A stretch of DNA of 64,000 nt from positions 1 through 64,000 of IMG/VR virus record IMGVR_UViG_3300017971_000201. One strand, given 5' to 3'. The stretch comes from a virus. Positions 19,383 through 31,135 of the stretch are shown here, in pieces. Both the position numbers and the translations under genes were made by a program. Within the stretch, counting starts at the first letter, position 1. Each line of letters begins with the position of its first letter. The notes below the pieces were generated by a model, which saw only the letters and a program-made list of their open reading frames with translations, did no database searches and was not told the DNA's origin.

Positions 19383-19457
19383 GGTCGCGTGGTGTAGCCA
19401 AGTCAACATGCCAGCCCGTCAAGCTGGAGATCGCGGGTGCGAATCCCGTCGCGACCG
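19383..19457 (+). tRNA. tRNA-Asp(GTC), C at position 33
   Basis: ccagc-ccgtcaa-gctgg. Confidence 0.85.
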
Positions 19458-19576
19458 TCATGGGAACCTGGCTGGTACCCAGAGGAGGAGCAGAGCGCTT
19501 CGCAAGAACAGGAGGTGACCTGGTGAGAGGTACGCTCACCGCAGAGGCGAATACCTAGGGTCGGAATCAACACCGA

Positions 19577-19648
19577 TCCTGGGATGCTCGATGGTCGAGT
19601 AGCCGCCTGTTAAGCGGAATGATGTGGGTTCGAGTCCCACCCCAGGAG
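19577..19648 (+). tRNA. tRNA-Asn(GTT)
   Basis: Loop ctgttaa; canonical TTC T loop. Confidence 0.85.
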
Positions 19649-19657
19649 TACAAACTC

Positions 19658-19695
19658 ACCGTCAGGTTCTCGGTGCGAATCCGAGGGGGTGAGCC
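19658..19695 (+). pseudogene. Orphan 3' half of a tRNA (Asn-like)
   Basis: accgtc-aggtt-ctcgg tgcgaat ccgag-ggggtga-g with no D arm upstream. Confidence 0.55.
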
Positions 19696-19697
19696 GC

Positions 19698-19769
19698 GCG
19701 TCGCAGGGAGATCAGTTCATCCGTCGGTCTGCAACACCGAAGAACCCGGTGCGACTCCGGGGCGGCGCT
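19698..19769 (+). tRNA. tRNA-Cys(GCA)
   Basis: tcggt-ctgcaac-accga; U73. Confidence 0.85.
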
Positions 19770-19772
19770 TCT

Positions 19773-19844
19773 AGGTCGCGCGCAAGGTACGCGGGCGGGT
19801 CTCCAAAACCTGCCGTCTGCTGGGTGCAAGTCCCAGGCGGCCTG
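19773..19844 (+). tRNA. tRNA-Trp(CCA)
   Basis: gcgggt-ctccaaa-acctgc; short D arm. Confidence 0.85.
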
Positions 19845-19846
19845 TC

Positions 19847-19914
19847 GTCCGAATGCCGTTCGAGTCTACATCTACCAACACGCTGTGACTCGGCAACAAC
19901 AACGTCGGACACCA
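19847..19914 (+). ncRNA. Short Y-RNA-like gene 1
   Basis: gtccgaatgcc...ctacatc...ggcaac...aacgtcggac-acca terminal stem. Confidence 0.7.
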
Positions 19915-19915
19915 T

Positions 19916-19988
19916 TGCCCCCTAGCTCAACTAGTAGAGTGCTTGGCTCTGAACCAAGAGGTTGTCGGTGCGAATCCGACGGGGGCTG
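19916..19988 (+). tRNA. tRNA-Gln(CTG)
   Basis: cttgg-ctctgaa-ccaag. Confidence 0.9.
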
Positions 19989-19992
19989 TCAT

Positions 19993-20068
19993 CGCGTGGT
20001 AGAGCAGTCAGGTTGTGCTCGCTGGGCTCATAACCCGGAGGTCGTAGGTTCGAATCCTACCCACGCTA
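19993..20068 (+). tRNA. tRNA-Met(CAT), initiator type
   Basis: 1:72 mismatch, GGG/CCC anticodon stem, loop ctcataa. Confidence 0.9.
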
Positions 20069-20072
20069 ACAA

Positions 20073-20146
20073 TGCGCGGTAGTCTAGTCAGGTACGACAC
20101 TGGGCTCATAACCCAGAGATTGCAGGTTCGAATCCTGTCCGCGCGA
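20073..20146 (+). tRNA. tRNA-Met(CAT), initiator type
   Basis: ctggg-ctcataa-cccag. Confidence 0.85.
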
Positions 20147-20151
20147 TCTGT

Positions 20152-20223
20152 TGCCCCCTAGCTCAAGAGTAGAGCGTCCGGCTTTGAACCGGAAGGTTGA
20201 GGGTGCGACTCCCTCGGGGGCTG
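20152..20223 (+). tRNA. tRNA-Gln(TTG)
   Basis: tccgg-ctttgaa-ccgga. Confidence 0.9.
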
Positions 20224-20275
20224 TCGGAACGCACGACCGGACGTTCCCTTTTCCCCTTTCGTCCCGTCGTGCTCT

Positions 20276-20346
20276 GGGGCATTGGTGAAACAGGATCACG
20301 CGGGCTTTGCAAGCCTGAATTGAGAGTGCGACTCTCTCATGCTCCA
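20276..20346 (+). tRNA. tRNA-Ala(TGC)
   Basis: G3:U70; loop tttgcaa. Confidence 0.9.
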
Positions 20347-20349
20347 TGC

Positions 20350-20420
20350 GGGCCATTCGTACAACAGCAGGACATCTCTCTTACAAGGAGAAGACGGGGG
20401 TGCGACTCCCTCATGGCCCA
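20350..20420 (+). tRNA. tRNA-Val(TAC)
   Basis: Loop cttacaa. Confidence 0.9.
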
Positions 20421-20429
20421 AAGGAACAC

Positions 20430-20501
20430 GCGGCCTTAGTTCCAGCAGCAGAACACCGGCTTGCCATGCCGGAGGCACGGGTGCAAATCCCGTAGGCCGC
20501 T
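20430..20501 (+). tRNA. tRNA-Gly(GCC)
   Basis: ccggc-ttgccat-gccgg. Confidence 0.9.
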
Positions 20502-20505
20502 TCAA

Positions 20506-20586
20506 CCGTCTGGGGTCCACCTAGTGGTGGTGCCGCGCTGTAAACGCGGTCCTTCGGGCAACGTGGTGCGAATCCACGCAGGCGGA
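20506..20586 (+). tRNA. tRNA-Tyr(GTA) with C1:G72
   Basis: ccgtctg/caggcgg acceptor; ccgcg-ctgtaaa-cgcgg; variable arm. Confidence 0.85.
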
Positions 20587-20651
20587 TCGGATCGCAAGCA
20601 GCACGGCAAGGTCCGGCTGGCCCGGTGAGCCCCACTGGGTATCCGGCGCAC

Positions 20652-20722
20652 GCGGCCTTGGCGTAGTAGTAACGCGTCAGCTTCCCAAGCTGACCGCACG
20701 GGTGCAACTCCCGTAGGCCGCT
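20652..20722 (+). tRNA. tRNA-Gly(CCC)
   Basis: tcagc-ttcccaa-gctga. Confidence 0.9.
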
Positions 20723-20726
20723 TCAA

Positions 20727-20801
20727 GCTCGGTTGGTGAAAGAGAATCACGCGAGGTTGTGGACCTCGAGTTCTACGGTGCGATTCCGAGACCGGGTACC
20801 A
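20727..20801 (+). tRNA. tRNA-His(GTG)
   Basis: cgagg-ttgtgga-cctcg; irregular T stem; encoded CCA. Confidence 0.8.
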
Positions 20802-20802
20802 A

Positions 20803-20874
20803 GCCCCCATGGCCTAACAGACAAGGCGCGTGGCTACGGACCATGAGATCCGGGTGCAACTCCTGGTGGGGGTA
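20803..20874 (+). tRNA. tRNA-Arg(ACG)
   Basis: cgtgg-ctacgga-ccatg. Confidence 0.9.
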
Positions 20875-20878
20875 TCGA

Positions 20879-20953
20879 CGGGCACGAGTCTCCAGATGAG
20901 CTGTCGCGCCTTATATGCGTAACGGCCGGGTGCAACTCCCGGGTGCCCTACCA
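20879..20953 (+). tRNA. tRNA with TAT anticodon (Ile-UAU-like)
   Basis: gggcac/gtgccc acceptor, gcgc-cttatat-gcgt, encoded CCA. Confidence 0.65.
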
Positions 20954-20984
20954 GCTCCGCTAGCCCAACAGCAGAGGCGCCGGT
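20954..20984 (+). pseudogene. 5' half of split short-arm tRNA-Leu
   Basis: gctccgc-ta-gcccaacagcagaggc-gccggt; D arm identical to tRNA-Leu(CAG) at 21771; acceptor pairs with gcggagc at 21681. Confidence 0.8.
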
Positions 20985-21012
20985 AGACAAAGCAGTAACG
21001 ACGCTGTAAAAC
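20984..21012 (+). promoter_or_regulatory. Sigma70-like promoter at left junction of HNH cassette
   Basis: TAGACA-17 nt-TAAAAC (preceded by TG), 6 nt before ATG. Confidence 0.5.
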
Positions 21013-21018
21013 AGAGGT

Positions 21019-21585
21019 ATGCGCAAAGAAATCTACCGTAGTCCCCCGCAGCAGATGCATGGTTATGTGGCCTACATCGTTCGCTACGACGACGGATTCA
21101 AGACCACGTTGTTCGAGCACCGGCTTGTGATGGAGCAACATCTAGGGAGGGCGCTACGGTCCGACGAAGTCGTTCATCACATAGATGGCGACAAGACAAA
21201 CAACGCGGCCGAGAACCTGGAACTTACTACTCCGTCGAAGCACGCGTCGAAGCACGCACGTCCGGCGCCGATAGTCGACCTGACCTGTCTGGTATGTGAG
21301 CGCTCGTTTGTCCGGCTAGCTCGGAAGGAACAGGAAAGGATCAGGCGTAGGAAGCGCGGCCCGTACTGCGGCAAGAAGTGCGCGGGGGTAGGTAGTCGCA
21401 AGCATCGTGGCAGGAAACGGGACAGCAAAGGCCGTATTCGATGTAGCGACTGCAAGCTCTTCCTACCAGAAGCAGAGTTTTGCAGGGAGCGCGGCAGGCC
21501 GGGTGGTCTGAGTTACAGGTGCAGATCCTGTAAGGCGGCCCAATTTCAATACAGGAAGAACAAGCAAGCCTCGGTGGCGGAATAG
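21019..21585 (+). CDS. HNH homing endonuclease with Zn fingers
   Basis: EHRLVMEQHLGRAL..EVVHHIDGDKTNNAAENLEL; CxxC pairs. Confidence 0.9.
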   Translation: MRKEIYRSPPQQMHGYVAYIVRYDDGFKTTLFEHRLVMEQHLGRALRSDEVVHHIDGDKTNNAAENLELTTPSKHASKHARPAPIVDLTCLVCERSFVRLARKEQERIRRRKRGPYCGKKCAGVGSRKHRGRKRDSKGRIRCSDCKLFLPEAEFCRERGRPGGLSYRCRSCKAAQFQYRKNKQASVAE

Positions 21586-21650
21586 CAGACGCGCTGGTCT
21601 CAAGAACCAGTGTCCGAAAGGACGTGTGGGTGCGAATCCCACCCGAGGCA
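21568..21650 (+). tRNA. tRNA-Leu(CAA), long variable arm, nested in split tRNA-Leu
   Basis: ctggt-ctcaaga-accag; overlaps the HNH stop codon. Confidence 0.9.
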
Positions 21651-21688
21651 AACACAGGAGGTTCCCAGTGCAAATCTGGGGCGGAGCA
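21651..21688 (+). pseudogene. 3' half of split tRNA-Leu
   Basis: acagg-aggtt-cccag tgcaaat ctggg-gcggagc-a. Confidence 0.8.
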
Positions 21689-21690
21689 AC

Positions 21691-21764
21691 GGTCCCGTAG
21701 CCCAATCAGCAGAGGTCCCGGCCTAAACCCAGGAACGGTCTCGGTGCAAATCCGAGGCGGAGCA
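21691..21764 (+). pseudogene. Chimeric/degenerate tRNA-Leu
   Basis: 5' ggtcccg does not pair with 3' gcggagc; D and T arms intact. Confidence 0.6.
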
Positions 21765-21770
21765 TCACAC

Positions 21771-21843
21771 GATCCTGTAGCCCAACAGCAGAGGCGCCGC
21801 ACTCAGGATGCGGAGGTTGTCGGTGCAAATCCGACCAGGATCA
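21771..21843 (+). tRNA. tRNA-Leu(CAG), short variable loop
   Basis: ccgca-ctcagga-tgcgg; 5-nt variable region. Confidence 0.9.
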
Positions 21844-21845
21844 TC

Positions 21846-21913
21846 GCTCGAATGCCGTCGTGGACTACATCCTGAACACATGACGTCTGCGGCAACACCA
21901 ACGTCGAGCACCA
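21846..21913 (+). ncRNA. Short Y-RNA-like gene 2
   Basis: gctcgaatgcc...gactacatc...ggcaac...aacgtcgagc-acca; co-varying stem relative to 19847. Confidence 0.7.
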
Positions 21914-21914
21914 C

Positions 21915-21997
21915 GCTGCCGTGGCGGAACAGCAGACGCGCCTGGTTGAGGGCCAGGTTCCCGAAAGGGAGTGGAGGTGCAACTCCTCTCGGCAGCA
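21915..21997 (+). tRNA. tRNA-Leu(GAG)
   Basis: cctgg-ttgaggg-ccagg; long variable arm. Confidence 0.9.
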
Positions 21998-22001
21998 TCT
22001 T

Positions 22002-22074
22002 GGGGTCGTGGCCAAGCAGTAAGGCGCCGCTCTGATAAGGCGGAGACTCGTGAGTGCAAATCTCACCGGCCCCA
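22002..22074 (+). tRNA. tRNA-Ile(GAT)
   Basis: ccgct-ctgataa-ggcgg. Confidence 0.9.
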
Positions 22075-22092
22075 TGCGACGATGAAGATCGA

Positions 22093-22656
22093 GTGAACGT
22101 CTCGCACAAGCATCGGTTCGTCTTCCTCGCGAACATGCGCACGGGCACGCGCTGCGTGTTCCACGCGCTTCGCCGCTACTTCGCTTGCATCGGCGGTAGC
22201 CACGATGCCAGGACGCTGACACACAAGATCGGCATCCCGGCCGGCTGCGAGCGCTACCTCGTGATCGCCACGGTGCGAAACCCGTTCAGCAGGATGGTCT
22301 CCTGCTGGAACTGGGTGCGCGAGGTTCCCGGCTGGCCGAGCGGGATCGACAAGTTCGTGCGAGCGAATCCGCACGACTTCGCCGGCTTCGTCGAGCGCGC
22401 GATGTCGACCGGCTTCGACTCCCAGTCGAGGCGCCTGGGCGAGATCGAGCCGGACCAGCTGATCCGCTACGAGCGGCTCCAGGCGAGCTTCAGCGAGCTG
22501 CCGTTCGTCACCGACGAGCAGCTCCACATCGTTCCGCAGAGCCCGATCACGGCCAACTGGCAGAGCTGGTACAGGCCGGAGATCGAGAAGATGGTGGCCG
22601 AGAAGTGGGCCGATGACTTCGATCGCTTCGGCTACCCGAAGGTCATTGGAAGGTGA
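22093..22656 (+). CDS. Sulfotransferase family 2 protein
   Basis: SHKHRFVFLANMRTGT, VRNPFSRMVS, IRYERL, WADDFDRFGY. Confidence 0.8.
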   Translation: MNVSHKHRFVFLANMRTGTRCVFHALRRYFACIGGSHDARTLTHKIGIPAGCERYLVIATVRNPFSRMVSCWNWVREVPGWPSGIDKFVRANPHDFAGFVERAMSTGFDSQSRRLGEIEPDQLIRYERLQASFSELPFVTDEQLHIVPQSPITANWQSWYRPEIEKMVAEKWADDFDRFGYPKVIGR

Positions 22657-22734
22657 ACCGGACAAGCGAACCGGAGCGGCCTGCTAAGTCGTCTGTCCCC
22701 TTCGGGGGATGTGGTGCAAGTCCACCTCCTTCCG
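22648..22734 (+). tRNA. tRNA-Ser(GCT), 8/4 fold
   Basis: cggc-ctgctaa-gtcg; ggaaggtg/ctccttcc acceptor; 4-bp T stem. Confidence 0.85.
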
Positions 22735-22887
22735 TTCGAGCAAGCACTGCCCTCTGTGGCCCGGTGCTCGTCGCGTCGAGCTGTTCGCTAGATCGGTCGT
22801 TCCCGGATGGTGCTGCTACGGCAGCGAGATCGGATCAATGATAGTTCCTCGTGGCGTCAGGAAGATCAGCTAAGAGAGGAGGAGGCT

Positions 22888-23463
22888 ATGGGCCTTCTAG
22901 TGGACGACCCTTGCCTCGTCCTCAACAGATCCTGGCAGGTAGTGGGGTTTCTCCCGATCGGGACCTGCATCGCCACTGTCATGCGCGATATGGCCTCGAT
23001 CATGTGCCCGACGTCGTACTTCCTCATGGACCTGGACGAGTGGATCGACAGAGCTGAGACTGACAGGTTCATCAAGACAGCCAGCACTCCGATCCCGGCG
23101 CCCGAGGTGATCGTACTGAAGAAGTACGGCGAGAGGCCCCCGCGCAAGGTGAGCTTCAACCGCCCGAACCTCTACAGACGGGACGAGCACACCTGCCAGT
23201 ACTGTGGCGAGGAACTCCCGCCCAAGAACCTCACGATCGATCACGTGCTACCGAGATCGAAGGGAGGTCCCACGACCTGGGAGAACACGGTGGCAGCCTG
23301 CCGCTCGTGCAACCAGAGGAAGGCCGACAAGACCACTGACGAGGCGCGTATGAAGCCTCGGAAGAAGCCCGCCGCCCCACGCTGGACACCTGGAGTCAGG
23401 ATCCCGCGAGGCGAGGTCAGGGCTAGCTGGGAGCCATTCCTGGCGAAGGAGCGGGTCGCCTAG
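22888..23463 (+). CDS. HNH endonuclease (McrA-like, tRNA-array associated)
   Basis: LVLNRSW, RDEHTCQYCG, TIDHVLPRSKGG, WENTVAACRSCNQRK; ggagg RBS. Confidence 0.9.
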   Translation: MGLLVDDPCLVLNRSWQVVGFLPIGTCIATVMRDMASIMCPTSYFLMDLDEWIDRAETDRFIKTASTPIPAPEVIVLKKYGERPPRKVSFNRPNLYRRDEHTCQYCGEELPPKNLTIDHVLPRSKGGPTTWENTVAACRSCNQRKADKTTDEARMKPRKKPAAPRWTPGVRIPRGEVRASWEPFLAKERVA

Positions 23464-23481
23464 GAGGCCCGTCTCCGCCCC

Positions 23482-23565
23482 GGAGCCGAGAACCTGGGGT
23501 AGTCCTGGGGCTCGCTTGGAAAGCGATGCGTTCTTCGGATTGGAGTGCGACTCTCCCCGGCTCCG
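23482..23565 (+). tRNA. tRNA-Ser(GGA)
   Basis: tcgc-ttggaaa-gcga; 4-bp T stem. Confidence 0.8.
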
Positions 23566-23573
23566 TGCTTGCT

Positions 23574-23783
23574 ATGATCGGCGCTGTGAAAAGCAAGATC
23601 GAAGTAGGCGAAACGGTACTTAGAGCGACGCTTGGATCCAGCGGTGATCTAGTTGTCGTCTCGGGTATCGAATCAGACAACGGCGTGGTCACCCGCTACC
23701 TGGTTAAGCCTGTAGCTCAACCAGACAGCGAGCCTGAACTAGTTCCTGCTGATCTGATTCACAGCCTACGCAAACGCCCCTGA
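23574..23783 (+). CDS. Small hypothetical protein
   Basis: Lower-GC ORF between tRNAs. Confidence 0.45.
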   Translation: MIGAVKSKIEVGETVLRATLGSSGDLVVVSGIESDNGVVTRYLVKPVAQPDSEPELVPADLIHSLRKRP

Positions 23784-23811
23784 AGCAGAAGCAGTGCTGC
23801 GCCTGCCTCGT
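23776..23811 (+). pseudogene. 5' half of split tRNA-Thr(CGT)
   Basis: gcccctg-aa-gcag..ctgc-g-cctgc-ct-cgt. Confidence 0.75.
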
Positions 23812-23892
23812 CGCTCTGGGTGGGCGCAGAGACGAGAATTGTCAGACGTCTTTATCGCACCATGTTCTGTGCTCAGGTAAAGCCCGGAACAA

Positions 23893-23963
23893 GCTCCTGT
23901 AGTTCAACAGCAGAATGCCTCTCTCGTAAGGAGGAGACGCGGGTGCAATTCCCGCCGGGAGCT
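23893..23963 (+). tRNA. tRNA-Thr(CGT), nested in split tRNA-Thr(CGT)
   Basis: cctct-ctcgtaa-ggagg. Confidence 0.9.
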
Positions 23964-23976
23964 TCAGCCTCAGATC

Positions 23977-24015
23977 CGTAAGCAGGAGAACCCGGTGCGA
24001 CTCCGGGCGGGAGTA
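23977..24015 (+). pseudogene. 3' half of split tRNA-Thr(CGT)
   Basis: cgt-aa-gcagg-agaa-cccgg tgcgact ccggg-cgggagt-a. Confidence 0.75.
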
Positions 24016-24019
24016 TCAA

Positions 24020-24091
24020 GCTCGCGTCGTCCAACAGATAGGATACGAGCCTCCGAAGCTCGAGATCTGGGTGCGACTCCCAGCGCGGGTA
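24020..24091 (+). tRNA. tRNA-Arg(CCG)
   Basis: cgagc-ctccgaa-gctcg. Confidence 0.9.
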
Positions 24092-24166
24092 TACAGGATG
24101 GACCCAGCTCCGGCTGGGGTAAATAGCGGCTGGCTGCACACCATCCTCATCAGTCAGTCGCGCCAA

Positions 24167-24240
24167 CAGGGCGTGGCGCAGTCTAGCAGCGCGTTGGTCT
24201 GGGGGACCAAAGGTCGTGGGTGCGAATCCCACCGCCCTGA
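24167..24240 (+). tRNA. tRNA-Pro(GGG)
   Basis: ttggt-ctggggg-accaa. Confidence 0.9.
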
Positions 24241-24267
24241 TCAGGAACGGGCAGACCCGTTCCGCTT

Positions 24268-24338
24268 GCCCTGATAGCTTAGTAGCAGAGCACTCGCTTG
24301 GTACGCGAGAGATCCCGGTGCGACTCCGGGTCAGGGCT
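24268..24338 (+). tRNA. tRNA-Thr(GGT)
   Basis: ctcgc-ttggtac-gcgag. Confidence 0.9.
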
Positions 24339-24343
24339 TAGAC

Positions 24344-24631
24344 ATGGCGAAGCTACGACGAGAGAAGCTGCCGGACGGAACCGACGCCGGCCTGCTGTCG
24401 TTCCAGTGTCCAGGCTGTGGCGCGCGCCACGCCTTCCGCATCATGTTCGACCCGGACCTGCCCGAAGAGCAGGTATGGTCGTGGAACGGCGACATGGACG
24501 GGCCGACGTTCGACCCAGCGCTGAAGGCCCCAGGCTGCCACCTCCGGTGCGTCGAGGGCAAGCTGCACTTCTTCGTCGACTCGGGGCACAAGCTCGCCGG
24601 CCGGCTCGTGGACCTGCCCGACGAGCTGTGA
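24344..24631 (+). CDS. DUF6527-like Zn-binding protein
   Basis: FQCPGCGARH, WSWNGDMDGPTFDP, CH, DSGHKLAG. Confidence 0.7.
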   Translation: MAKLRREKLPDGTDAGLLSFQCPGCGARHAFRIMFDPDLPEEQVWSWNGDMDGPTFDPALKAPGCHLRCVEGKLHFFVDSGHKLAGRLVDLPDEL

Positions 24632-24632
24632 C

Positions 24633-24818
24633 GTGGCCGATTGCGATCACGAGTGGGAGGAGATCCACCACTACGGCGAGGATCTCGAGGGCCGGCTGAT
24701 CCACTACTGCCCGACCGGCTTCAAGTGGTGCAGGCTCTGCCGCAGGGTCGAAGACGAAGACAACCCCCAGTGCCATCTCTGGGGCGAACCAGATCCGATA
24801 CAACCCGCAGACACGTAG
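24633..24818 (+). CDS. Small Cys/His protein
   Basis: CDHEW...WCRLC. Confidence 0.45.
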   Translation: MADCDHEWEEIHHYGEDLEGRLIHYCPTGFKWCRLCRRVEDEDNPQCHLWGEPDPIQPADT

Positions 24819-24872
24819 AGTGGGCTCGCTCTCATAAGGCGATGCAAGACGGTGCAAGCCCGTCCTGCGGGA
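24804..24872 (+). tRNA. tRNA-Met/Ile2(CAT), elongator type with reduced D arm
   Basis: cccgcag/ctgcggg; tcgct-ctcataa-ggcga. Confidence 0.7.
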
Positions 24873-24876
24873 TCAT

Positions 24877-24913
24877 GGAACGTGAACCGGACAAGCGTGC
24901 CGGGCCGGTCTCG
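24877..24913 (+). pseudogene. 5' half of split tRNA-Ser(CGA)
   Basis: ggaacgtg-aa-ccggacaagcgtgccgg-gc-cggt-ct-cg; near-identical to the 5' end of Ser(GCT) at 22648. Confidence 0.85.
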
Positions 24914-24944
24914 CGCTACGATCCCGTCAATTACGGGGTGCATC

Positions 24945-25559
24945 ATGCCGGGCAAACGGCGACCGGACCTGAGAGAACGGGCCATCAACCTGCGGTGCAA
25001 GCAGAAGCTCGGCAGGAACGAGATTGCGCGTTGCCTTGGAGGGCTGGTGAGCCCTGTAACTGTTGGCCGGTGGTTGCGGAACCACCCGCTCCGTAAGAAC
25101 GAGGAGCGGCGGGTTCGCGAGACTGCCATCAAGAAAAGGCGCCCACGGCAACCGAAGCAGCCGAGAGTTCACTGCGAGGTCTGCGGAAAGAAGTGCAGTC
25201 GCGGGGCGAAGCGTTTTTGCTCTGATTGCGCGGTCGGACGAGTACGAAGTCCCAGACGAGAACCGACACAGCGTTACCTCGTCGAAGACAGGCTGGTCAA
25301 CTCGACGCGCCTCAAGACAAGACTCATCGAGGAGGGTTATCTAGAGGATCGTTGCGGCAAGTGCGGTTCGTTGCCGGAGTGGAACGGTGAGCCGCTCAAC
25401 CTCCAGCTGGATCACATCGACGGAAACCGTAGGAACAATCTTCTCAGCAACCTTCGGATTGTTTGTCCCAATTGCCACTCGCAGACGCCGACCTACGCTG
25501 CCAGGAATCGCAGGAATCCGAAGAGGTCGAGAAGGAAGCCGCGTTACGCGCACGAATGA
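24945..25559 (+). CDS. HNH homing endonuclease with N-terminal HTH
   Basis: CGKCG..EWNGEPLNLQLDHIDGNRRNNLLSNLRIVCPNCHSQT. Confidence 0.9.
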   Translation: MPGKRRPDLRERAINLRCKQKLGRNEIARCLGGLVSPVTVGRWLRNHPLRKNEERRVRETAIKKRRPRQPKQPRVHCEVCGKKCSRGAKRFCSDCAVGRVRSPRREPTQRYLVEDRLVNSTRLKTRLIEEGYLEDRCGKCGSLPEWNGEPLNLQLDHIDGNRRNNLLSNLRIVCPNCHSQTPTYAARNRRNPKRSRRKPRYAHE

Positions 25560-25563
25560 AATT

Positions 25564-25653
25564 GGAGAGCGTCCGGCTAGACGAGGAGCACGTCTCGAAA
25601 ACGTGTAGGGCGTACGTAAGTGCGTCTTCAGGGTGCGAGTCCCTGGCTCTCCG
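25564..25653 (+). tRNA. tRNA-Ser(CGA), canonical 7/5 fold, nested
   Basis: cacgt-ctcgaaa-acgtg; ggagagc/gctctcc. Confidence 0.9.
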
Positions 25654-25667
25654 TAGGAGCGGGAAGA

Positions 25668-25715
25668 CGAAAACCGTGCGTCCTTCGGGTTGGGGTGCAA
25701 CTCCTCCGCGTTCCG
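25668..25715 (+). pseudogene. 3' half of split tRNA-Ser(CGA)
   Basis: cga-aa-accg-variable arm-gggg tgcaact cctc-cgcgttcc-g. Confidence 0.85.
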
Positions 25716-25718
25716 TCA

Positions 25719-25791
25719 CAGGGTGTAGCTTAGGAGCAAAAGCGCCGCGTTCGGGACGCGGAGAGCGTGGGTGCGAGTCCCACCACCCTGA
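25719..25791 (+). tRNA. tRNA-Pro(CGG)
   Basis: ccgcg-ttcggga-cgcgg. Confidence 0.9.
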
Positions 25792-25815
25792 TCAACCATG
25801 AGGTAGAACATCTGC

Positions 25816-26262
25816 ATGAACGAACCCGAATGGTGCGCTCTCTGCGCGGACGCTCCGGCCGTCGGCCGGCTCTTTCCAGTGGTCTACCTCACGCAGGATG
25901 AGGTGAAGTCGGAGCGCCCGCTGCCGAGACACGAGACTCGCTGCTGCGCGCGGTGCGGGAACCAGGCGTCCGACAGCTTCGTTGACGAGAACTTCGAGAC
26001 CGGCCGGATGGCTGTACTCCAGTTCGAGCACGACGACTTCGCGAAGGTCTCCGAGAAGCGGATCCTCGAGCTGGTCGGTCAGCTCGAGAACGCGCAGTGC
26101 TCGCTGTGCGGTAAGAAGATGGAGAACGACCCGGATGCCATGCCGGCGCGTCCGCTGGCCGAGAAGCTGCTCCGGGAGCATCCGAACATGAAGTACGTGA
26201 CAGCAGTGTGCGCCGACTGCGCGCCGAGCTGCCCGTGCTGCGACGAAGAAGAGAACAACTAG
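25816..26262 (+). CDS. Multi-CxxC Zn-finger protein
   Basis: Four CxxC pairs plus CPCC. Confidence 0.65.
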   Translation: MNEPEWCALCADAPAVGRLFPVVYLTQDEVKSERPLPRHETRCCARCGNQASDSFVDENFETGRMAVLQFEHDDFAKVSEKRILELVGQLENAQCSLCGKKMENDPDAMPARPLAEKLLREHPNMKYVTAVCADCAPSCPCCDEEENN

Positions 26263-26333
26263 GGGCAGTAGCTCAATAGGAGAGCGCCTCGTTCGCAACG
26301 AGGAGGTTGTCGGTGCGACTCCGATCTGCTCCA
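26262..26333 (+). tRNA. tRNA-Ala(CGC)
   Basis: cctcg-ttcgcaa-cgagg. Confidence 0.9.
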
Positions 26334-26334
26334 T

Positions 26335-26422
26335 GAAGGCGTGACGAATCAGCGTCGTGGCTCGCGAGTGCGTTACGGAACTTGGGATCGTCGGGCTCCG
26401 GGTGCAACTCCCGGCGTCTTCA
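26335..26422 (+). ncRNA. tRNA-like RNA without a canonical anticodon arm
   Basis: gaaggcg/cgtcttc acceptor, D hairpin gacg/cgtc, T arm ccggg-tgcaact-cccgg. Confidence 0.55.
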
Positions 26423-26426
26423 TCAA

Positions 26427-26499
26427 GGGGCCTTAGCTCAGTTAGGAGAGCGCCGATCTGGCAGGTCGGAGGTCACGAGTGCGAATCTCGTAGGCTCCA
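26427..26499 (+). tRNA. tRNA-Ala(GGC)
   Basis: ccgat-ctggcag-gtcgg. Confidence 0.9.
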
Positions 26500-26500
26500 T

Positions 26501-26583
26501 GGAAGGTGATCTCGGCCAGCTGCCGAGCGCGGTTTTGAAAACCGATGGAGCTTCGGCTTGGGGTGCAACTCCTCCGCCTTCCG
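26501..26583 (+). tRNA. tRNA-Ser(TGA), 8/4 fold
   Basis: cggt-tttgaaa-accg; ggaaggtg/cgccttcc. Confidence 0.85.
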
Positions 26584-26584
26584 T

Positions 26585-26668
26585 GGGCTTCTACCGGAGA
26601 CCCAGTTCATGAGCGTGGTGGCCGGGCTCGCTAGCAGGGCGGGGTTCGATTCCCTCTGGAGGCTCCCA
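26585..26668 (+). ncRNA. tRNA-like element (T arm plus terminal stem)
   Basis: gggcttcta/tggaggctc stem, gggg-ttcgatt-ccct, ends cca. Confidence 0.4.
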
Positions 26669-26670
26669 AA

Positions 26671-26744
26671 GGGCGCGTAGCTCAGTTAGTCAGAGTGCCT
26701 CGGTGACATCGAGGAAGTCCTGGGTGCGAATCCCAGCGTGCCCA
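26671..26744 (+). tRNA. tRNA-Val(GAC)
   Basis: cctcg-gtgacat-cgagg. Confidence 0.9.
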
Positions 26745-26832
26745 TCGCAACTCGCGCGAGCGAGTCTGTGATGGTGGAGTGCGTCCGGTCTTCCGGTCGC
26801 CCCCGGCCGAGCCCCTCCCGGCTCGGCCACCT

Positions 26833-26903
26833 GGCCCCACGGTCTAGTAGCAAGATGCGAGTCTTTCACGCTCGAGAGGAGGGTGCGATTCCCTCTGGGG
26901 TCA
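26833..26903 (+). tRNA. tRNA-Glu(TTC)
   Basis: cgagt-ctttcac-gctcg. Confidence 0.9.
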
Positions 26904-26964
26904 TCGGCGATCCGCGCGACCGGCGGATGTAAGCGAGGCCACGCGCGGCCCCGCCCCAGCTCAC

Positions 26965-27035
26965 GCGGACGTACGTCAACAGCAGACTGTCGGGCTTCCA
27001 ACCCGTCGATGCCGGTGCAAATCCGGTCGTCCGCT
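26965..27035 (+). tRNA. tRNA-Gly(TCC)
   Basis: cggg-cttccaa-cccg. Confidence 0.85.
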
Positions 27036-27039
27036 TCCT

Positions 27040-27109
27040 GCCCCCGGCAGAGAGGCAGCCGGCTCTTCTAAAGCTGGCCTTCCCGGTGCGACTCCGGGCG
27101 GGGGTACCA
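27040..27109 (+). tRNA. Non-canonical tRNA-Arg(TCT)-like
   Basis: gcccccg/cgggggt, no clear D stem, 7-bp stem gccggct-cttctaa-agctggc, encoded CCA. Confidence 0.65.
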
Positions 27110-27110
27110 C

Positions 27111-27182
27111 GGGTCTGTGGTGTAACAGGAGCACACTCGGCTTTTACCCGAGGCGGTCAGGGTGCGAATCCCTGCGGACCCA
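27111..27182 (+). tRNA. tRNA-Lys(TTT)
   Basis: ctcgg-cttttac-ccgag. Confidence 0.9.
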
Positions 27183-27241
27183 TGAAACTTCCTTGCGGTT
27201 GTCGGCCGCAGGGTATAACCAAGACAGCGAGTGAAGGAGTC

Positions 27242-27306
27242 GTGCCGGTCCGAAGCCGATCCGTTTTCCCCACTTTCCCCCTTTAGGAAAAGCAACTGGC
27301 CGGCGC
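27242..27306 (+). ncRNA. Y-RNA-like gene, animal-Y-like architecture
   Basis: gtgccggtc-cgaag ... polypyrimidine loop ... ctggccggcgc. Confidence 0.7.
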
Positions 27307-27311
27307 GCTCC

Positions 27312-27324
27312 GCTCTTTGACAAC
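27312..27324 (+). promoter_or_regulatory. boxA-like antitermination site
   Basis: gctctttgacaac upstream of tmRNA. Confidence 0.6.
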
Positions 27325-27340
27325 TCGGGCACGAACACAC

Positions 27341-27689
27341 GGGGCTGACATGGCATCGACCGGGTCAGTGAATCTCGTGCTGCGTGTAGAGGTCCCCGGT
27401 TGGCCTCTCTAAACAACCGGGAAACTGAACAATTGCCAACGCACCTGTTCGCCTGGCAGCCTAAAAAGGCCGCCCCCAGCTGGATCCCCCGCCCATGGGG
27501 TGAAAGATCTGGGCCATAAGATGGGCTGGTCCCGCGCTGGAGTCTCAGCGGCAACGGACGAGAAACTACTGCGACGCCCCACGACCAGCATCCTGCTCTC
27601 GGTCTGGTCGCGGGTAAGCTCGAGAGCTACGCACGTAGACGCACGAAGGGATCGACTACGGGACCGGGGTTCGATTCCCCGCAGCTCCA
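27341..27689 (+). ncRNA. ssrA: tmRNA
   Basis: 5' ggggctga..gg.atcgac; tag ORF 27435-27464 = ANAPVRLAA*; 3' gaccggggttcgattccccgcagctcca. Confidence 0.95.
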
Positions 27690-27699
27690 GGTATCTCCA

Positions 27700-27728
27700 T
27701 TGAGCATCTCTCCTCCGCTCCATACAAT
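27700..27728 (+). promoter_or_regulatory. Sigma70-like promoter
   Basis: TTGAGC-17 nt-TACAAT followed by ggagg RBS. Confidence 0.6.
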
Positions 27729-27746
27729 CGGATCGGAGGTGCCGAG

Positions 27747-28352
27747 ATGCCCACAATGGAGACGATCGAGTGCGCCAGCTGCGGCCAGTCGGTTGAGAAG
27801 CCGCTCGGCGAGGTCACTCGATCGAAGAAGCTCGGCAGACCGATGTTCTGCGGTCTGTCGTGCTCGGCAACGCACAGGAACGCGACCAGAAAGGCGCGCG
27901 AGTTCGAGATGACCTGCGAGTGCGGTGAGGTGTTCACCACCACGACGCGCAACAAGGCCAAGCGTCACTGTTCGCGCTCATGTGCGAGCAGATTCTCGAT
28001 GACCAGAAGACGCCGGTCAGCGCAGCGCGCGGCCGGCAAGAAGCACAAGCAGAACCTCGACACAGCCAAGGCTATGAGGTCGCGAGAGGCTTGGAAGTAC
28101 TCGCTGCTGCGAGAAGAGTTGGGAGACCGGCCACATGAGTTCGAGTTCGAGCTTGGCGGTCGCATTTTCGACCTAGCCCTTCTCGACACCAAGATGCTGG
28201 TCGAGTTCGACGGTCCTAGTCATCGTGAAGGCCGACAACGGATGGAAGACGGAGCGAAAGACAAGCTCGCCGCCAAACTAGGATGGCGAGTCGTTCGACG
28301 GGAGGTGAAGCGGGCGACCGTGATCCACCCCTCGACGATCGAGGACTTGTAG
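27747..28352 (+). CDS. Zn-finger + DUF559/Vsr-like endonuclease
   Basis: Two CxxC..FC/HC.xxC repeats; FDLAL..LVEFDGPSH..D..KD..GWRVVR. Confidence 0.8.
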   Translation: MPTMETIECASCGQSVEKPLGEVTRSKKLGRPMFCGLSCSATHRNATRKAREFEMTCECGEVFTTTTRNKAKRHCSRSCASRFSMTRRRRSAQRAAGKKHKQNLDTAKAMRSREAWKYSLLREELGDRPHEFEFELGGRIFDLALLDTKMLVEFDGPSHREGRQRMEDGAKDKLAAKLGWRVVRREVKRATVIHPSTIEDL

Positions 28353-28375
28353 GGGTTCGATTCCCGCCAGCTCCA
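28352..28375 (+). repeat. Displaced duplicate of tmRNA 3' end
   Basis: ggggttcgattcccgccagctcca vs ggggttcgattccccgcagctcca at 27666-27689. Confidence 0.85.
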
Positions 28376-28379
28376 TCGA

Positions 28380-28453
28380 CGCGCGGTGGGCTAATCCGGT
28401 ACGCCGCCGGGCTCATAACCCGGAGACTGGGGGTTCGAATCCCTCCCGCGCTA
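28380..28453 (+). tRNA. tRNA-Met(CAT), initiator type
   Basis: ccggg-ctcataa-cccgg; 1:72 mismatch. Confidence 0.85.
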
Positions 28454-28480
28454 TCCCCTCTCGTCGATCACGATGTCGGC

Positions 28481-28603
28481 CGGCGGCCGAATGAACTGAC
28501 GGGAGTACATCAGTGAGCGCAGGCTCCTCTAGGTAACCTGGACTCGGCAGGGCTAGGAGGAGCCGACAACCCGGCGGCGTGACCGCAAGCTCTCACGTCG
28601 CCG
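28481..28603 (+). ncRNA. Y-RNA-like gene (longer, non-tRNA effector domain)
   Basis: cggcggccgaatg..ggagtacatc ... cacgtcgccg. Confidence 0.55.
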
Positions 28604-28641
28604 ACCAGGCGGTCGTGGGTGAGATCCCCGCGACCGTCATA

Positions 28642-28715
28642 GGACCGAATGCTCCGGCGGGACTACATCTTGAGGAGACGTTTCGTCTCGCTGACCCCAC
28701 AACGTCGGTCCACTA
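28642..28715 (+). ncRNA. Short Y-RNA-like gene 3
   Basis: ggaccgaatgc..gggactacatc ... caacgtcggtcc. Confidence 0.7.
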
Positions 28716-28721
28716 GAACAA

Positions 28722-28876
28722 CCCACGAATGCCTTGGGAGACTACATCCTGCAAGCCGGTGTCCGAATGGACGTGCGGGTTCGAGTCCCGCCCGGCCGCC
28801 TCGACGGCCGGTGGCGGAATGGTAGACGCGCCGGAGGTGGAGACACCATGAAGTCCCCCGCCCCTTACGTCGTGGG
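28722..28876 (+). ncRNA. yrlA: YrlA-type Y RNA (permuted tRNA mimic)
   Basis: cccacgaatgcc..gactacatc; then variable arm, T arm gcggg-ttcgagt-cccgc, loop-closed acceptor ccggccg/cggccgg, D arm tggcggaatggtagacgc; 3' acgtcgtggg closes the terminal stem. Confidence 0.85.
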
Positions 28877-28898
28877 CTCCACACAACACGTGCTAGGG

Positions 28899-29375
28899 AT
28901 GTACCTGTTCGGCTTCATCGTCGAAGACGACAAGACGCTGACCCCTGGTCTGATGGAGCGGATCGTGTCCGAGGAGAATCGCAGCGTGGTGGACATCCTC
29001 GCGGACATCGGCAAGACGCCGAAGGAGATCCGCCAGCTGATGCGCGAGACCGCCGAAGACATGGCGAGATGGTGCCTGCGCACGCACGTGCGTCCGGTCG
29101 ATGCCCGACACCGGATCCACGCCGCTGCGATGTCCGTCTTGAAGGGCCGGCGCTTCTCGGGAGCCTCCCCGAAGAGGTCGGCCGACAAGATGGTCTCGAG
29201 GATCATGTGCGACTACGAGCGCGACTACGGTAACTGGCTCGCCAGGGTGCGGCGCGAGCGAGCCCGGCAGGAGCGCGACGGCGAAGCCTACGTCCCCTGG
29301 CAGCAGCGTCATGCCAAGCAGCGTGCCGACGAACTCAAGAAGCGGTGGAAGGGCCGGCGGCGCGGGAAGCGATGA
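28899..29375 (+). CDS. Hypothetical protein
   Basis: ORF starting MYLFGFIV. Confidence 0.55.
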   Translation: MYLFGFIVEDDKTLTPGLMERIVSEENRSVVDILADIGKTPKEIRQLMRETAEDMARWCLRTHVRPVDARHRIHAAAMSVLKGRRFSGASPKRSADKMVSRIMCDYERDYGNWLARVRRERARQERDGEAYVPWQQRHAKQRADELKKRWKGRRRGKR

Positions 29376-29656
29376 GGAACCGCATCCAGAAGAACGATCG
29401 CGTCATCCTGGTGGACAACAGGATCCACCCGGAGATTCCGAACGGCACGCGCGGATGGGCCTACCACATCGCTACGATGATGGGCGGTGACGTATACGTG
29501 CGGTGGACCGATCGCTCGCCAGATGGCAGTTGCATCGATGACTGCTACTTCCCGCAGAGCTGCCTGGACCATCTGAGTGCTGTCGATCGGCTGGCAGAGC
29601 TGGTCAGCGCTGACCTGGGGTCGGGGAACACAGGTCCCCCAAGTGTTCTCCCATAA
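29372..29656 (+). CDS. Small SH3-like protein with SAVDRL motif
   Basis: DRVILV..GTRG..VYVRW..LDHLSAVDRLAELV. Confidence 0.6.
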   Translation: MRNRIQKNDRVILVDNRIHPEIPNGTRGWAYHIATMMGGDVYVRWTDRSPDGSCIDDCYFPQSCLDHLSAVDRLAELVSADLGSGNTGPPSVLP

Positions 29657-29706
29657 ACCTAGATTTTTCCGACAGGAGGAGCTAGGCTCTCGGTAGAGCT
29701 TGACCC

Positions 29707-29925
29707 ATGAGCCGCTCCGATGTAGTTGCTGCGAGCCTCGCTGCCACGTGCTCCGTCTGTGGGGAGACCCACCCGGAGGAATTCGAGGAGCGGTTCCGCG
29801 CGATTCTGGCCCAGGACCCGGCGCTCGCGTCTGATCCTGATGTCCAGTGGATCTTCACGTGCGGATCCTGCTCCGCCAAGGGTTTATGCCCGTGCTGCCA
29901 GGGCTCCCAGCAGGGAGCCGCCTAA
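29707..29925 (+). CDS. Small Zn-finger protein
   Basis: CSVC..CGSC..CPCC, like the C-terminus of 25816-26262. Confidence 0.55.
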   Translation: MSRSDVVAASLAATCSVCGETHPEEFEERFRAILAQDPALASDPDVQWIFTCGSCSAKGLCPCCQGSQQGAA

Positions 29926-29929
29926 GCAC

Positions 29930-30004
29930 GGACGCGTGGCCCAACGGCAGGAGGCTAACCACTTAAAATGGTTGAAGTTGTGGGTTCGACTCCCACCGCG
30001 TCCA
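29930..30004 (+). tRNA. tRNA-Leu(TAA), short variable region
   Basis: aacca-cttaaaa-tggtt; canonical GG/TTC elbow. Confidence 0.85.
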
Positions 30005-30332
30005 TTCCGGCCCTCTGAGGCCCTCTACGACGGGCAGGTATCAGGAGCCACGACCCCTACCGATCGTCCCGCCACGGGCCTCCACGGGCCGTACGATGGC
30101 GATCTGCTCCGCCTCGAGCATCATGCTCACTGCGTCACGGTGCTGTGGGGCAAGGCCGTCGGTCAGGTGGCGCCAGCGCTCCACGACCCTGGCGGTCCAG
30201 CCATCCGGGTCATCGTACCTGAGCACTCGATCGGCCGCCGGACCGTCCGGGTCGGCTATGGCCGCCAGACGATTGCCGACGCGGTTTGACCGAAGCGCAG
30301 GCCGAAGCCGGCGATCTTGGCGGTCGCGTAGT

Positions 30333-30680
30333 TCATTCTCCGCCGGCCAGGGCCGCCGCCTCCATGACGGCCGCTATGGCCATGACCGAGAGTGCCGCCG
30401 TCTCTTCTGTCTCTTCCTCCTCGATGATGCCGTCGGCGGCGGCGAGCCTGTCGGCCACCTCGCGCGCCGAGTGTAGATCGCCGGACACGACAGCCGATTC
30501 GAGGAGCAGACGCAGCCGATCCATCCCGCGATTGGCGATCTTGCGCTCGGTCAGCACGGTCGGATGATCATCGCTGAGCCCGGCGGCCAGCTGTGTCTCG
30601 AGCCGCAGACGAGACCGGGCGATCCTCTTGGCGAAGTAGGCGATGTCGTCGATGGCGCTGGCGCTGGGGATCTCGCTCAT
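30333..30680 (-). CDS. Hypothetical protein
   Basis: ORF with ggagg RBS. Confidence 0.55.
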   Translation of the reverse strand: MSEIPSASAIDDIAYFAKRIARSRLRLETQLAAGLSDDHPTVLTERKIANRGMDRLRLLLESAVVSGDLHSAREVADRLAAADGIIEEEETEETAALSVMAIAAVMEAAALAGGE

Positions 30681-30706
30681 GGAAGACCTCCAAGAGGGAT
30701 CCTACC

Positions 30707-31135
30707 TTAGCTCGACCAGACCCGCGTCTTCTTCTCCTCGACCGCCGCCATGAAGGCTTCGCGCTCCTCCTGGCCGACGGTGTTGATGTTCGACTTGAGC
30801 GCGACGAGGAACTCGCTGACCTGCTCATCGTCCCTCGAGTTTGTAGCGACATCCACCAGCGCGGCGACGAACCCCTCGACCTGGTTCTCGCTCTGGAGGT
30901 AGTTGATCAGTGAGCACGAGAGATGCAGGTCGTGCTTCGCGAGGGCCGCAGACGCGCGCAGCAGGGAGAGGATGTGCTCGCCCCGCTGGTCCCCGGTCGG
31001 GTTCTCCAGCTCGAGCTTACAGATGCGGCGCGCGAGGCCGACCGCGAGGTTGTGAAGCTGGTCAGCGCTGGCGCCTTCCAGATCAGCGGGATCGGGCTTC
31101 TTCATGAACTTGGCCGGGGTGGGTACGTCGGTCAC
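30707..31135 (-). CDS. Hypothetical protein
   Basis: Helical ORF. Confidence 0.55.
   Translation of the reverse strand: MTDVPTPAKFMKKPDPADLEGASADQLHNLAVGLARRICKLELENPTGDQRGEHILSLLRASAALAKHDLHLSCSLINYLQSENQVEGFVAALVDVATNSRDDEQVSEFLVALKSNINTVGQEEREAFMAAVEEKKTRVWSS

Follow-up and report, generated by a model that had tools for sequence, protein, structure and literature searches.

A phage tRNA-Ser(CGA) gene split at its anticodon around an HNH endonuclease gene and a second tRNA-Ser(CGA)

The virus record comprises 159,664 bp (65% G+C; CheckV completeness 58%), and the window, that is, the whole stretch of DNA analyzed herein, is its first 64 kb. A tRNA array extends over 19.1-30.0 kb, with approximately 40 tRNA genes and a tmRNA gene, all on the + strand, and is interrupted by several endonuclease ORFs. 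Three intact resident serine tRNA genes in this array are of the 8/4 kind, a form already described by Mukai et al. (PMC5389517), phage tRNA clusters included. These are tRNA-Ser(GCT) (22648-22734), tRNA-Ser(TGA) (26501-26583), and an 8/4-type tRNA-Ser(GGA) (at about 23482-23566), each on the + strand. The first two were called by ARAGORN at 80% thresholds only, and the best Rfam score of Ser(TGA) was to a tRNA-Sec-like model (36.8 bits). A second metagenome contig (L035) matched the record at 99.99% identity across 20.7 kb. Against GenBank phages, megablast of 24300-26300 returned zero matches, and a distant blastn search with 25560-27700 matched single tRNAs and tmRNA only; in IMG/VR, neither the exact T-arm 20-mer nor the D-arm pattern of the nested tRNA described below had a match.

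Within the array, an 8/4 tRNA-Ser(CGA) gene lies in two halves. The 5′ half (24877-24913, + strand) encodes the acceptor strand, D arm, and anticodon stem as far as C34 and G35. The 3′ half (25668-25715, + strand) resumes at C34, G35, and A36 and continues through the anticodon stem, variable arm, 4-bp T arm, 8-nt acceptor strand, and G73. An nhmmer profile built from the intact 8/4 serine tRNAs, searched against the whole 159.7-kb genome, matched, in order, the three resident genes, the 3′ half (model positions 36-85, E=3.9e-9), and the 5′ half (model positions 1-37, E=0.004), and no others. The model ranges of the two halves thus overlap by exactly two bases, CG, as expected from the first-pass annotation, which had located the CG of the anticodon on both sides of the break. 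The boundaries it had given were also recovered: the 5′ half, read there as ending cggt-ct-cg at 24913, ends ccggt-ct-cg in the sequence, and the 3′ half begins cga-aa-accg at 25668 and closes with the discriminator G at 25715. The 5′ half could be aligned to two of the resident genes, Ser(GCT) and Ser(TGA), as well as to an intact gene on L037, a fragment of a related genome considered below, and the T arm and acceptor strand of the 3′ half were 96% identical to the same L037 gene.

The acceptor strands of the two halves, GGAACGTG and CGCGTTCC, form 8 pairs, one of them T.G. When rejoined (24877-24911 plus 25668-25715), the halves are drawn by ARAGORN as an 83-nt tRNA-Ser(cga) whose acceptor stem has 8 bp and whose T stem has 4 bp, and the unconstrained minimum free energy (MFE) fold likewise had the 8-bp acceptor stem, in line with the earlier proposal that the strands pair in the 8/4 manner of the resident serine tRNAs. 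ARAGORN missed the rejoined gene at default settings and called it at 80% thresholds, exactly as for the intact resident Ser(GCT) and Ser(TGA) genes. With its 8-bp acceptor, 4-bp T stem, long variable arm, G73, and serine anticodon, the rejoined gene has the full set of features that mark an (8/4) tRNA-Ser. At acceptor position 5:68, the halves have C-G where the Ser(GCT) and Ser(TGA) paralogues have G-C, a two-sided change across 750 nt. The variable arm was weaker than those of its relatives, one pair being lost in the MFE fold. In a multiple alignment, the nearest relatives of the split gene were the resident Ser(TGA) (73.5%), the Ser(CGA) of the related genome G001 (71.8%), and the resident Ser(GCT) (70.1%). 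ARAGORN's intron mode was abandoned, as it produced chimeras of paralogous tRNAs in the dense array.

The element inserted between the halves is 756 bp long (24912-25669, + strand), its ends being ambiguous by the 2-nt CG. Its parts, all on the + strand, are a leader of 31 nt (24914-24944), an ORF of 204 aa (24945-25559), a complete tRNA-Ser(CGA) of 90 nt (25564-25653), hereafter the cargo, and a trailer of 14 nt (25654-25667) between the cargo 3′ end and the 3′ half. The ORF and the cargo take up all but 51 nt (31+4+16) of the insert, leaving no space for a ribozyme, and no group I or group II intron family was detected by Rfam in 18000-31000 at E<=1. The leader contains a hairpin (CCCGT at 24923-24927 with ACGGG at 24933-24937) that, in the MFE fold, covers a Shine-Dalgarno-like GGGGTG (24935-24940) upstream of the ATG. 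Hairpins covering the Shine-Dalgarno motif were predicted at an equal position in two related cassettes, L034 and L162, the sequences of all three being different, and we infer from these folds that the leader hairpin may have a regulatory role.

The ORF encodes an endonuclease with an N-terminal helix-turn-helix (HTH), a CxxC...CxxC ribbon, and an HNH domain, so that the HTH-HNH ORF reported inside the split gene is confirmed. It matched PHROG 10822 (HNH endonuclease) at E=1e-29 and the Pfam HNH_3/HNH families, the match to HNH_3 (E=2.4e-5) scoring 24.3 bits, slightly below the 24.8 cut-off. The catalytic motif D-H...N...N/H and the flanking CxxC...CxxC zinc site are present and intact, and C137, C140, D156, H157, N169, C174, C177, and H178 were invariant across 34 homologues. 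An AF2 model had a mean pLDDT of 85.7, with residues 111-180 at 96-98. On the question of the beta-beta-alpha-metal fold, Foldseek against the PDB yielded weak matches to HNH enzymes (McrA, Cap5, Gme HNH, and I-HmuI; best E=0.066) and nothing at E<=0.001, and phmmer against the PDB gave only I-HmuI (E=0.54) and the zinc-ribbon protein L37e. The annotated GTG start at 24852 is an over-extension, since the N-terminus aligns from M1 with the homologue on L034.

The cargo begins at 25564, 4 nt past the TGA stop of the ORF, as the first-pass annotation had it for a canonical 7/5 tRNA-Ser(CGA). ARAGORN called it at default settings, with a start at 25566 that is 2 nt short. It has a 7-bp acceptor, a 5-bp T stem, a 3-bp D stem, a long variable arm, and G73, and in the MFE fold (-41.5 kcal/mol, z=-3.0) it forms a perfect 7/5 class-II cloverleaf.

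With a degenerate T-arm pattern we recovered L037, which belongs to G001, a complete IMG/VR genome of 275 kb. This genome is collinear with the array of the window at 70-90% identity, many indels separating the two. G001 carries an intact 85-nt 8/4 tRNA-Ser(CGA) with the same neighbors (L037 c[11531-11615]). The order Thr(ggt), an odd tRNA(CAT), Ser(cga), then further along Pro(cgg), Ala, Ala, and Ser(tga) is kept, and it continues with Val, Glu, Gly, Arg, Lys, and the tmRNA, whose tag peptide is identical. At E<=0.001, no homologue of the window HNH was detected in G001, nor was a relative of the nested tRNA found there. An HTH ORF adjoins the intact Ser(CGA) in G001 and is unrelated to the DUF559 ORF of the window.

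The stretch in question was also present in two public DNA runs, one of which, X2, is a seawater metagenome. In X2, a 96-nt contig covers 24845-24911 and passes straight on to 25668, so that 756 nt are missing; the joint is ambiguous by 2 nt, again the CG. This empty contig had a depth of 3.7, compared with 8.5 for an 853-nt contig bearing the insert, and its length fits a k=31 bubble (30+36+30). The evidence for the empty allele consists of assembled contigs in which the right side of the junction spans only 30 nt, and the contig could come from a close strain rather than from the same population. Since insert-bearing and skipping contigs occur together in X2, filled and empty alleles coexist in nature. 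Another joint in X2, from 24907 to 25675 with 11 other letters including the anticodon GCT, was assigned to the paralogous Ser(GCT) and not to an allele of the split gene. The earlier claim that the gene was split by an insertion is thus matched by empty sites in the syntenic G001/L037 and in the X2 contig, and the element is present or absent at one precise site among close relatives, the polymorphism by which homing genes are recognized. With the gene unbroken both in a relative and in the same sample, the element appears to replace the gene that it destroys, and not to splice itself out.

The only close full-length homologue of the HNH among 5.8 billion proteins was P0002 (56% identity), which is encoded on L034. 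This contig has the 5′ half, the left end (TCG|YGCTAC), and the 3′ half as in the window. Its cargo tRNA ends after the variable arm and runs directly into the 3′ half, the T arm and the trailer having been deleted. All 8 acceptor pairs of the L034 halves are Watson-Crick, and one that is G-C in the window is A-T in L034, both strands having changed. The break point common to the two cassettes fits either a single ancestral insertion or one element spread by homing.

The next full-length homologues, P0012 (39% identity) and P0005 (37%), lie on short contigs with matching anatomy. On L163/L164, an 8/4 tRNA-Ser(GCT) is broken after G34 (5′ half 392-427, 3′ half 1213-1263), and the end of the HNH ORF overlaps an intact 8/4 tRNA-Ser(GCT) of different sequence (1108-1194). 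On L162, an 8/4 tRNA-Ser(GGA) is broken in its anticodon (5′ half 250-283, 3′ half 1061-1109), and the HNH ORF again overlaps at its end an intact 8/4 tRNA-Ser(GGA) cargo (966-1051). The 3′ halves of L162 and L163 matched the profile at model positions 37-85 (E about 1e-7), and the rejoined halves of both adopted 8/4 cloverleaves in unconstrained folds, the anticodons being as expected. All sister cassettes are compatible with a break between positions 34 and 35 of the anticodon. In each of the three types (CGA, GCT, and GGA), the break fits 34|35 and the anticodon of the cargo is that of the broken gene, and this double agreement speaks more strongly than any other observation for the cargo being a replacement.

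More broadly, at least six tRNAs were located within 3 kb at 24 of 33 IMG/VR loci bearing the HNH domain, and a tRNA started between -27 and +31 nt from the ORF stop at 10 of 22 distinct loci. On L007, from an A+T-rich phage, a 5′ tRNA half is accompanied by an HNH ORF, a tRNA-Tyr as cargo, and a 3′ remnant with an acceptor strand that pairs 7/7 with that of the 5′ half, and on L011 a tRNA-Leu 5′ half ending inside the anticodon adjoins a tRNA-Leu(TAA) cargo; at both loci, the tRNA fragments next to the ORF match the cargo in type. A scan for joinable halves at 13 other HNH loci under default thresholds returned L007 as the sole clear case, with L014 doubtful.

We also considered where the cargo came from. 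A metagenome search with a pattern of 16 fixed bases located L090, an unrelated and visibly A+T-richer phage tRNA array, which holds the closest relatives of the cargo among the matches listed, most of which look like chance. In one multiple alignment, the cargo was 58-70% identical to the four 7/5 serine tRNAs of L090, compared with 43% for the split gene (61% when the two were optimally aligned as a pair), and its acceptor, D, and T arms almost match those of the L090 Ser(GGA). The nested tRNA is therefore not the closest relative of the split one; the opposite result was what the first-pass annotation had named as fatal to its reading. The proposal made there that the replacement came from another lineage is supported, though less firmly, by the affinity with L090 and by G001, which has neither a tRNA of the nested type nor the HNH. 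As to the difference in fold that had been taken as the sign of this origin, the foreign affinity stood, but the difference is not essential to the design, given that two sister cassettes carry 8/4 cargo. The unusual T-G-C T loop of the array is also found in the cargo, and the source was therefore probably a phage lineage with the same habit. A core of the anticodon arm is identical in cargo and split gene, over 11 nt in the window, 13 nt in L034, and 16 nt in L162. An enzyme reading this core alone would cut its own cargo, and recognition must therefore extend into the D or variable arm; alternatively, the common core could result from gene conversion or short-patch homogenization of the two copies.

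Taken as a whole, these observations make it probable that a free-standing HNH homing gene and a tRNA-Ser(CGA) form one traveling unit, inserted at or near anticodon positions 34/35 of the phage's 8/4 tRNA-Ser(CGA). The target of the HNH would be the intact gene at or near the insertion site, to judge from the position of the element and from the 34/35 break of the three sister cassettes. In a mixed infection, the enzyme would cut the intact gene of a phage without the element. The break would then be repaired from the invaded allele, with the two tRNA halves and their flanks as homology, and the 756-bp insert would be copied in, so that the element would spread by double-strand-break repair. 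The insert would destroy the recognition site and so make the invaded allele immune. The cargo isoacceptor, placed right after the ORF stop and presumably expressed and charged, would maintain the decoding capacity of the array. The spare gene would thereby take the role that splicing has for intron- and intein-borne endonucleases, and the halves would remain as relics.

The alternative that fares best, although we judge it unlikely, is that the HNH is a passenger, its real target lying elsewhere, and that the block of HNH and tRNA entered the anticodon by some other recombination in a shuffling array. Many free-standing phage endonucleases cut at a distance from their own gene, the array holds several endonuclease ORFs besides this one and differs from G001 by many indels, and the anticodon-arm core common to cargo and split gene is awkward for a recognition site exactly there. 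Against this, three sister enzymes sit in the anticodons of three serine isoacceptors, at the same 34/35 position and each with a cognate cargo, and the precise ends are accompanied by a clean empty allele; such regularity is hard to obtain without site-specific cutting.

Considerably less credit is due to the idea that the split tRNA is still in use, its halves being joined or paired at the RNA level with the insert as a giant intervening sequence. The acceptor pairing is complete both in the window, with 8 pairs, and in L034, where all 8 are Watson-Crick and one shows the two-sided G-C to A-T change. With the L034 cargo broken, the halves would be the only Ser(CGA) at that locus. Broken cargo and paired halves are not predicted by a simple relic model, unless the change predates the invasion. 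Yet the searched interval (Rfam, 18000-31000, E<=1) contained no group I or II intron, 51 nt are too few for a ribozyme, the gene is interrupted within the anticodon rather than at 37/38, the variable arm in the window lacks one pair relative to its relatives, and an intact DNA allele exists, as insertion predicts. Searches for RtcB and the RNA_ligase family in this genome, of which 58% is estimated to be present, gave no hit, a result of little weight. That the nested tRNA is instead a diverged local copy of the split gene, with the HNH arriving later, is the least credible explanation of all: the L162 and L163 cargos are, it is true, also 8/4 and 66-72% identical to the split gene, but the window cargo differs in architecture (7/5, with a 3-bp D stem), is nearer to the L090 serine tRNAs than to the split gene (58-70% versus 43%), and is absent from the uninvaded relative, and we saw no relative in which the nested tRNA adjoins an intact 8/4 Ser(CGA) without an HNH.

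Returning to a traveling unit of HNH and replacement tRNA, free-standing homing endonucleases are known from phage tRNA clusters, with cutting of tRNA genes established for SegB, and the endonuclease of the window is probably a variant of this kind. SegB of T4 is a free-standing GIY-YIG homing endonuclease of the T4 tRNA cluster (PMC2330249; also PMC13096335), which cuts the tRNA genes of related phages that lack it, is inherited preferentially with the flanking tRNA genes, and recognizes the conserved T-loop sequence GGTTCRANTCC in many tRNA genes (PMC2330249). Like SegB, the HNH of the window is encoded within a phage tRNA array, on the strand of the tRNAs and outside any intron. Unlike SegB, to which it is not related, it matches HNH families, and it sits at one anticodon, whereas the T-loop target of SegB recurs in many genes; SegB itself lies between genes, with neither a split tRNA nor a dedicated replacement isoacceptor.

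A second comparison is offered by the T5 tRNA region, for which HNH endonucleases (hegA/C/D, the F-Tfl enzymes) were described by Akulenko 2004, as cited in PMC2330249. The HNH domain of the window was 36.7% identical to T5 hegA (E=4e-13), and where the hegA record notes HTH-type InterPro domains, the window protein has an HTH and a zinc ribbon in its N-terminal part. In the T5 record (NC_005859), hegC, hegD, and T5.069 each extend with their stop into the start of a tRNA gene (tRNA-Ser2, tRNA-Gln2, which carries a pseudogene flag, and tRNA-Asn, respectively), an ORF-then-tRNA unit like that of the window cassette. Unlike the window, the T5 record lists, as far as its annotation goes, no flanking halves of a broken target.

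Group I introns in the anticodon loops of bacterial tRNA genes also bear endonucleases, such as the tRNA-fMet intron with I-Ssp6803I; insertion destroys the element's own target, and RNA self-splicing removes the cost. The window shares with this intron an endonuclease gene in a tRNA anticodon loop, but there is no ribozyme in its insert, and the loss is made good by a complete additional tRNA gene. In the 'genes in pieces' nrdA/mobE of phage Aeh1, a gene is split by endonuclease insertion and its pieces are functional, and endonuclease ORFs of fungal mitochondria bring a replacement 3′ gene segment, for example in Allomyces atp6. These cases resemble the cassette in that a free-standing endonuclease gene occupies another gene, whose function is preserved with no splicing step and of which a relic persists. 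They differ in that they concern protein genes and replacement of a part, whereas here an RNA gene is broken and a whole substitute is carried. To our knowledge, homing endonucleases have been thought to persist in genes only by way of intron or intein removal, and otherwise to lie between genes.

The split gene and the three resident serine genes agree with the (8/4) tRNA-Ser of Mukai et al. in the 8-bp acceptor, the 4-bp T stem, the long variable arm, and G73, and in lying in a phage tRNA cluster, and the parts of that paper covered here (PMC5389517) do not describe (8/4) serine genes split by endonuclease cassettes. HNH genes beside tRNA arrays have been noted repeatedly (PMC8421152, PMC5966550, and PMC6409571), and two of these papers (PMC5966550 and PMC6409571) refer to Pope et al. 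2014 (J Virol 88:2461) when crediting HNH enzymes with the generation of tRNA diversity. In the literature, we found no description of a tRNA split at its anticodon by an endonuclease with a cognate replacement; the work of Pope et al. 2014 on the arrays of cluster M mycobacteriophages, known to us through these citations, is possible partial prior art.

A more far-reaching proposal, to which we would give about an even chance, is that the combination of HTH, zinc ribbon, HNH, and cognate cargo is a retargetable cut-and-replace gene drive of tRNA genes. Each sister would be directed at one serine isoacceptor (CGA, GCT, or GGA) and would supply a cleavage-resistant substitute, swapping 8/4 and 7/5 architectures between lineages through co-infection. 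Such elements would then be a main driver of array turnover, and would represent a third way, besides introns and inteins, of entering an essential gene. An element of this kind would pay for the broken gene with a spare copy, needing no splicing and working for RNA genes. This would account for the frequent attachment of HNH genes to the 5′ side of tRNAs in phage arrays, for the presence there of half-tRNAs and tRNA-like relics missed by gene finders, and for the entry of isoacceptors with a foreign shape. The locus is open to testing, with target, immune copy, and enzyme defined to the base and with natural filled, empty, and decayed alleles, and enzymes able to tell one anticodon region from those of dozens of similar tRNA genes would be of interest as specific nucleases.

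A second cassette lies at window positions 20954-21764 and is composed of a 5′ tRNA half (GCTCCGC..., ~20955-20985), an HNH_3 ORF (21019-21585), a cargo tRNA(caa) (21568-21650), and 3′ tRNA remnants with the end GCGGAGCA, located at 21651-21688 and repeated at 21764. At the equivalent site, G001, the complete 275-kb syntenic relative from IMG/VR, retains the 5′ half and a tRNA(caa), but of the HNH protein only part of the C-terminus (CPNCNSQTPTF...) is left; this looks like a degenerating stage.

At 22648-23566, an HNH_5 ORF (22807-23463) sits between an 8/4 Ser(GCT) gene and an 8/4 Ser(GGA) gene (~23482-23566), the latter starting 18 nt past the HNH_5 stop and missed by both ARAGORN, at default settings, and the Rfam tRNA model. 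A DUF559/Vsr-like ORF (27747-28352) is located 3′ of the tmRNA (27341-27690) and is directly followed by a 23-nt copy of a tmRNA 3′ end (...GCCAGCTCCA, 28353-28375). This copy is closer to the tmRNA end of G001 than is the end of the window's own tmRNA, and G001 lacks the ORF, having a 64-nt gap there. The DUF559/Vsr-like ORF looks like an endonuclease whose insertion supplied its target, the tmRNA, with a substitute 3′ end.

Directly after an intact tRNA-Thr(cgt) (23892-23965) is a 3′ tRNA fragment (...CGTAAG...CGGGAGTA, 23966-24015). The 5′ fragment proposed in the first-pass annotation pairs poorly with this 3′ fragment, showing one mismatch and two wobbles in seven positions, and there was no endonuclease at this site (23776-24015). 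An unannotated tRNA-like gene at 24801-24873, called by neither ARAGORN nor Rfam, is 87% conserved in G001 (759-835 of the reverse complement of its locus L037). Its anticodon loop reads CTCATAA, its acceptor strands are CCCGCAG/CTGCGGG, and its D arm is unusual.

Upstream of the array, a TROVE/Ro60 ORF was present at 16722-18395, based on a Pfam match to the corresponding region of L035, a metagenome contig 99.99% identical over 20.7 kb. Additionally, in the region 28700-28830, a weak Rfam match to YrlA, a Y RNA-like family, was located at 28774-28829, with a tRNA-like module close by.

Across the array (19110-29000), 29 of the 35 tRNAs called by ARAGORN had the T loop T-G-C-R-A-N-T, with G where the near-universal U55 is expected, and in most array tRNAs the D-loop G18G19 pair was missing (e.g., CAACAGCAGA). 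The exceptions to this habit were the Met, Asn, Leu(taa), and Tyr(10839) genes. The G001 array (loci L037 and L160) was similar, with 33 TGC versus 2 TTC. Such an altered elbow also does not match GGTTCRANTCC, the site recognised by SegB, the homing endonuclease of the T4 tRNA cluster.

The inserts seem to differ from one phage's array to the next. Downstream of its intact Ser(CGA), G001 carries a 206-aa ORF (L037:10838-11458, minus strand) along with a tRNA-like 5′ fragment. The ORF encodes an N-terminal HTH, has no recognised nuclease domain, and is not present in the window. In the T5 tRNA region (L161, 26000-42000), the annotation lists several RNAs as 'stable RNAs of unknown function' or 'tRNA-like RNAs'; these adjoin HNH ORFs with stops that overlap the starts of tRNAs, and they could be relics of split tRNAs. 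Finally, the cargo tRNAs of the sister cassettes that split Ser(GGA) (L162:966-1051) and Ser(GCT) (L163:1108-1194) have a common acceptor, GGAACGTA/TGCGTTCC, which is close to GGAACGTG/CGCGTTCC, the acceptor of the split Ser(CGA) gene in the window (24877-25715). This resemblance suggests that a target backbone may serve elsewhere as cargo, such that one tRNA backbone may be the target in one lineage and the cargo in another.
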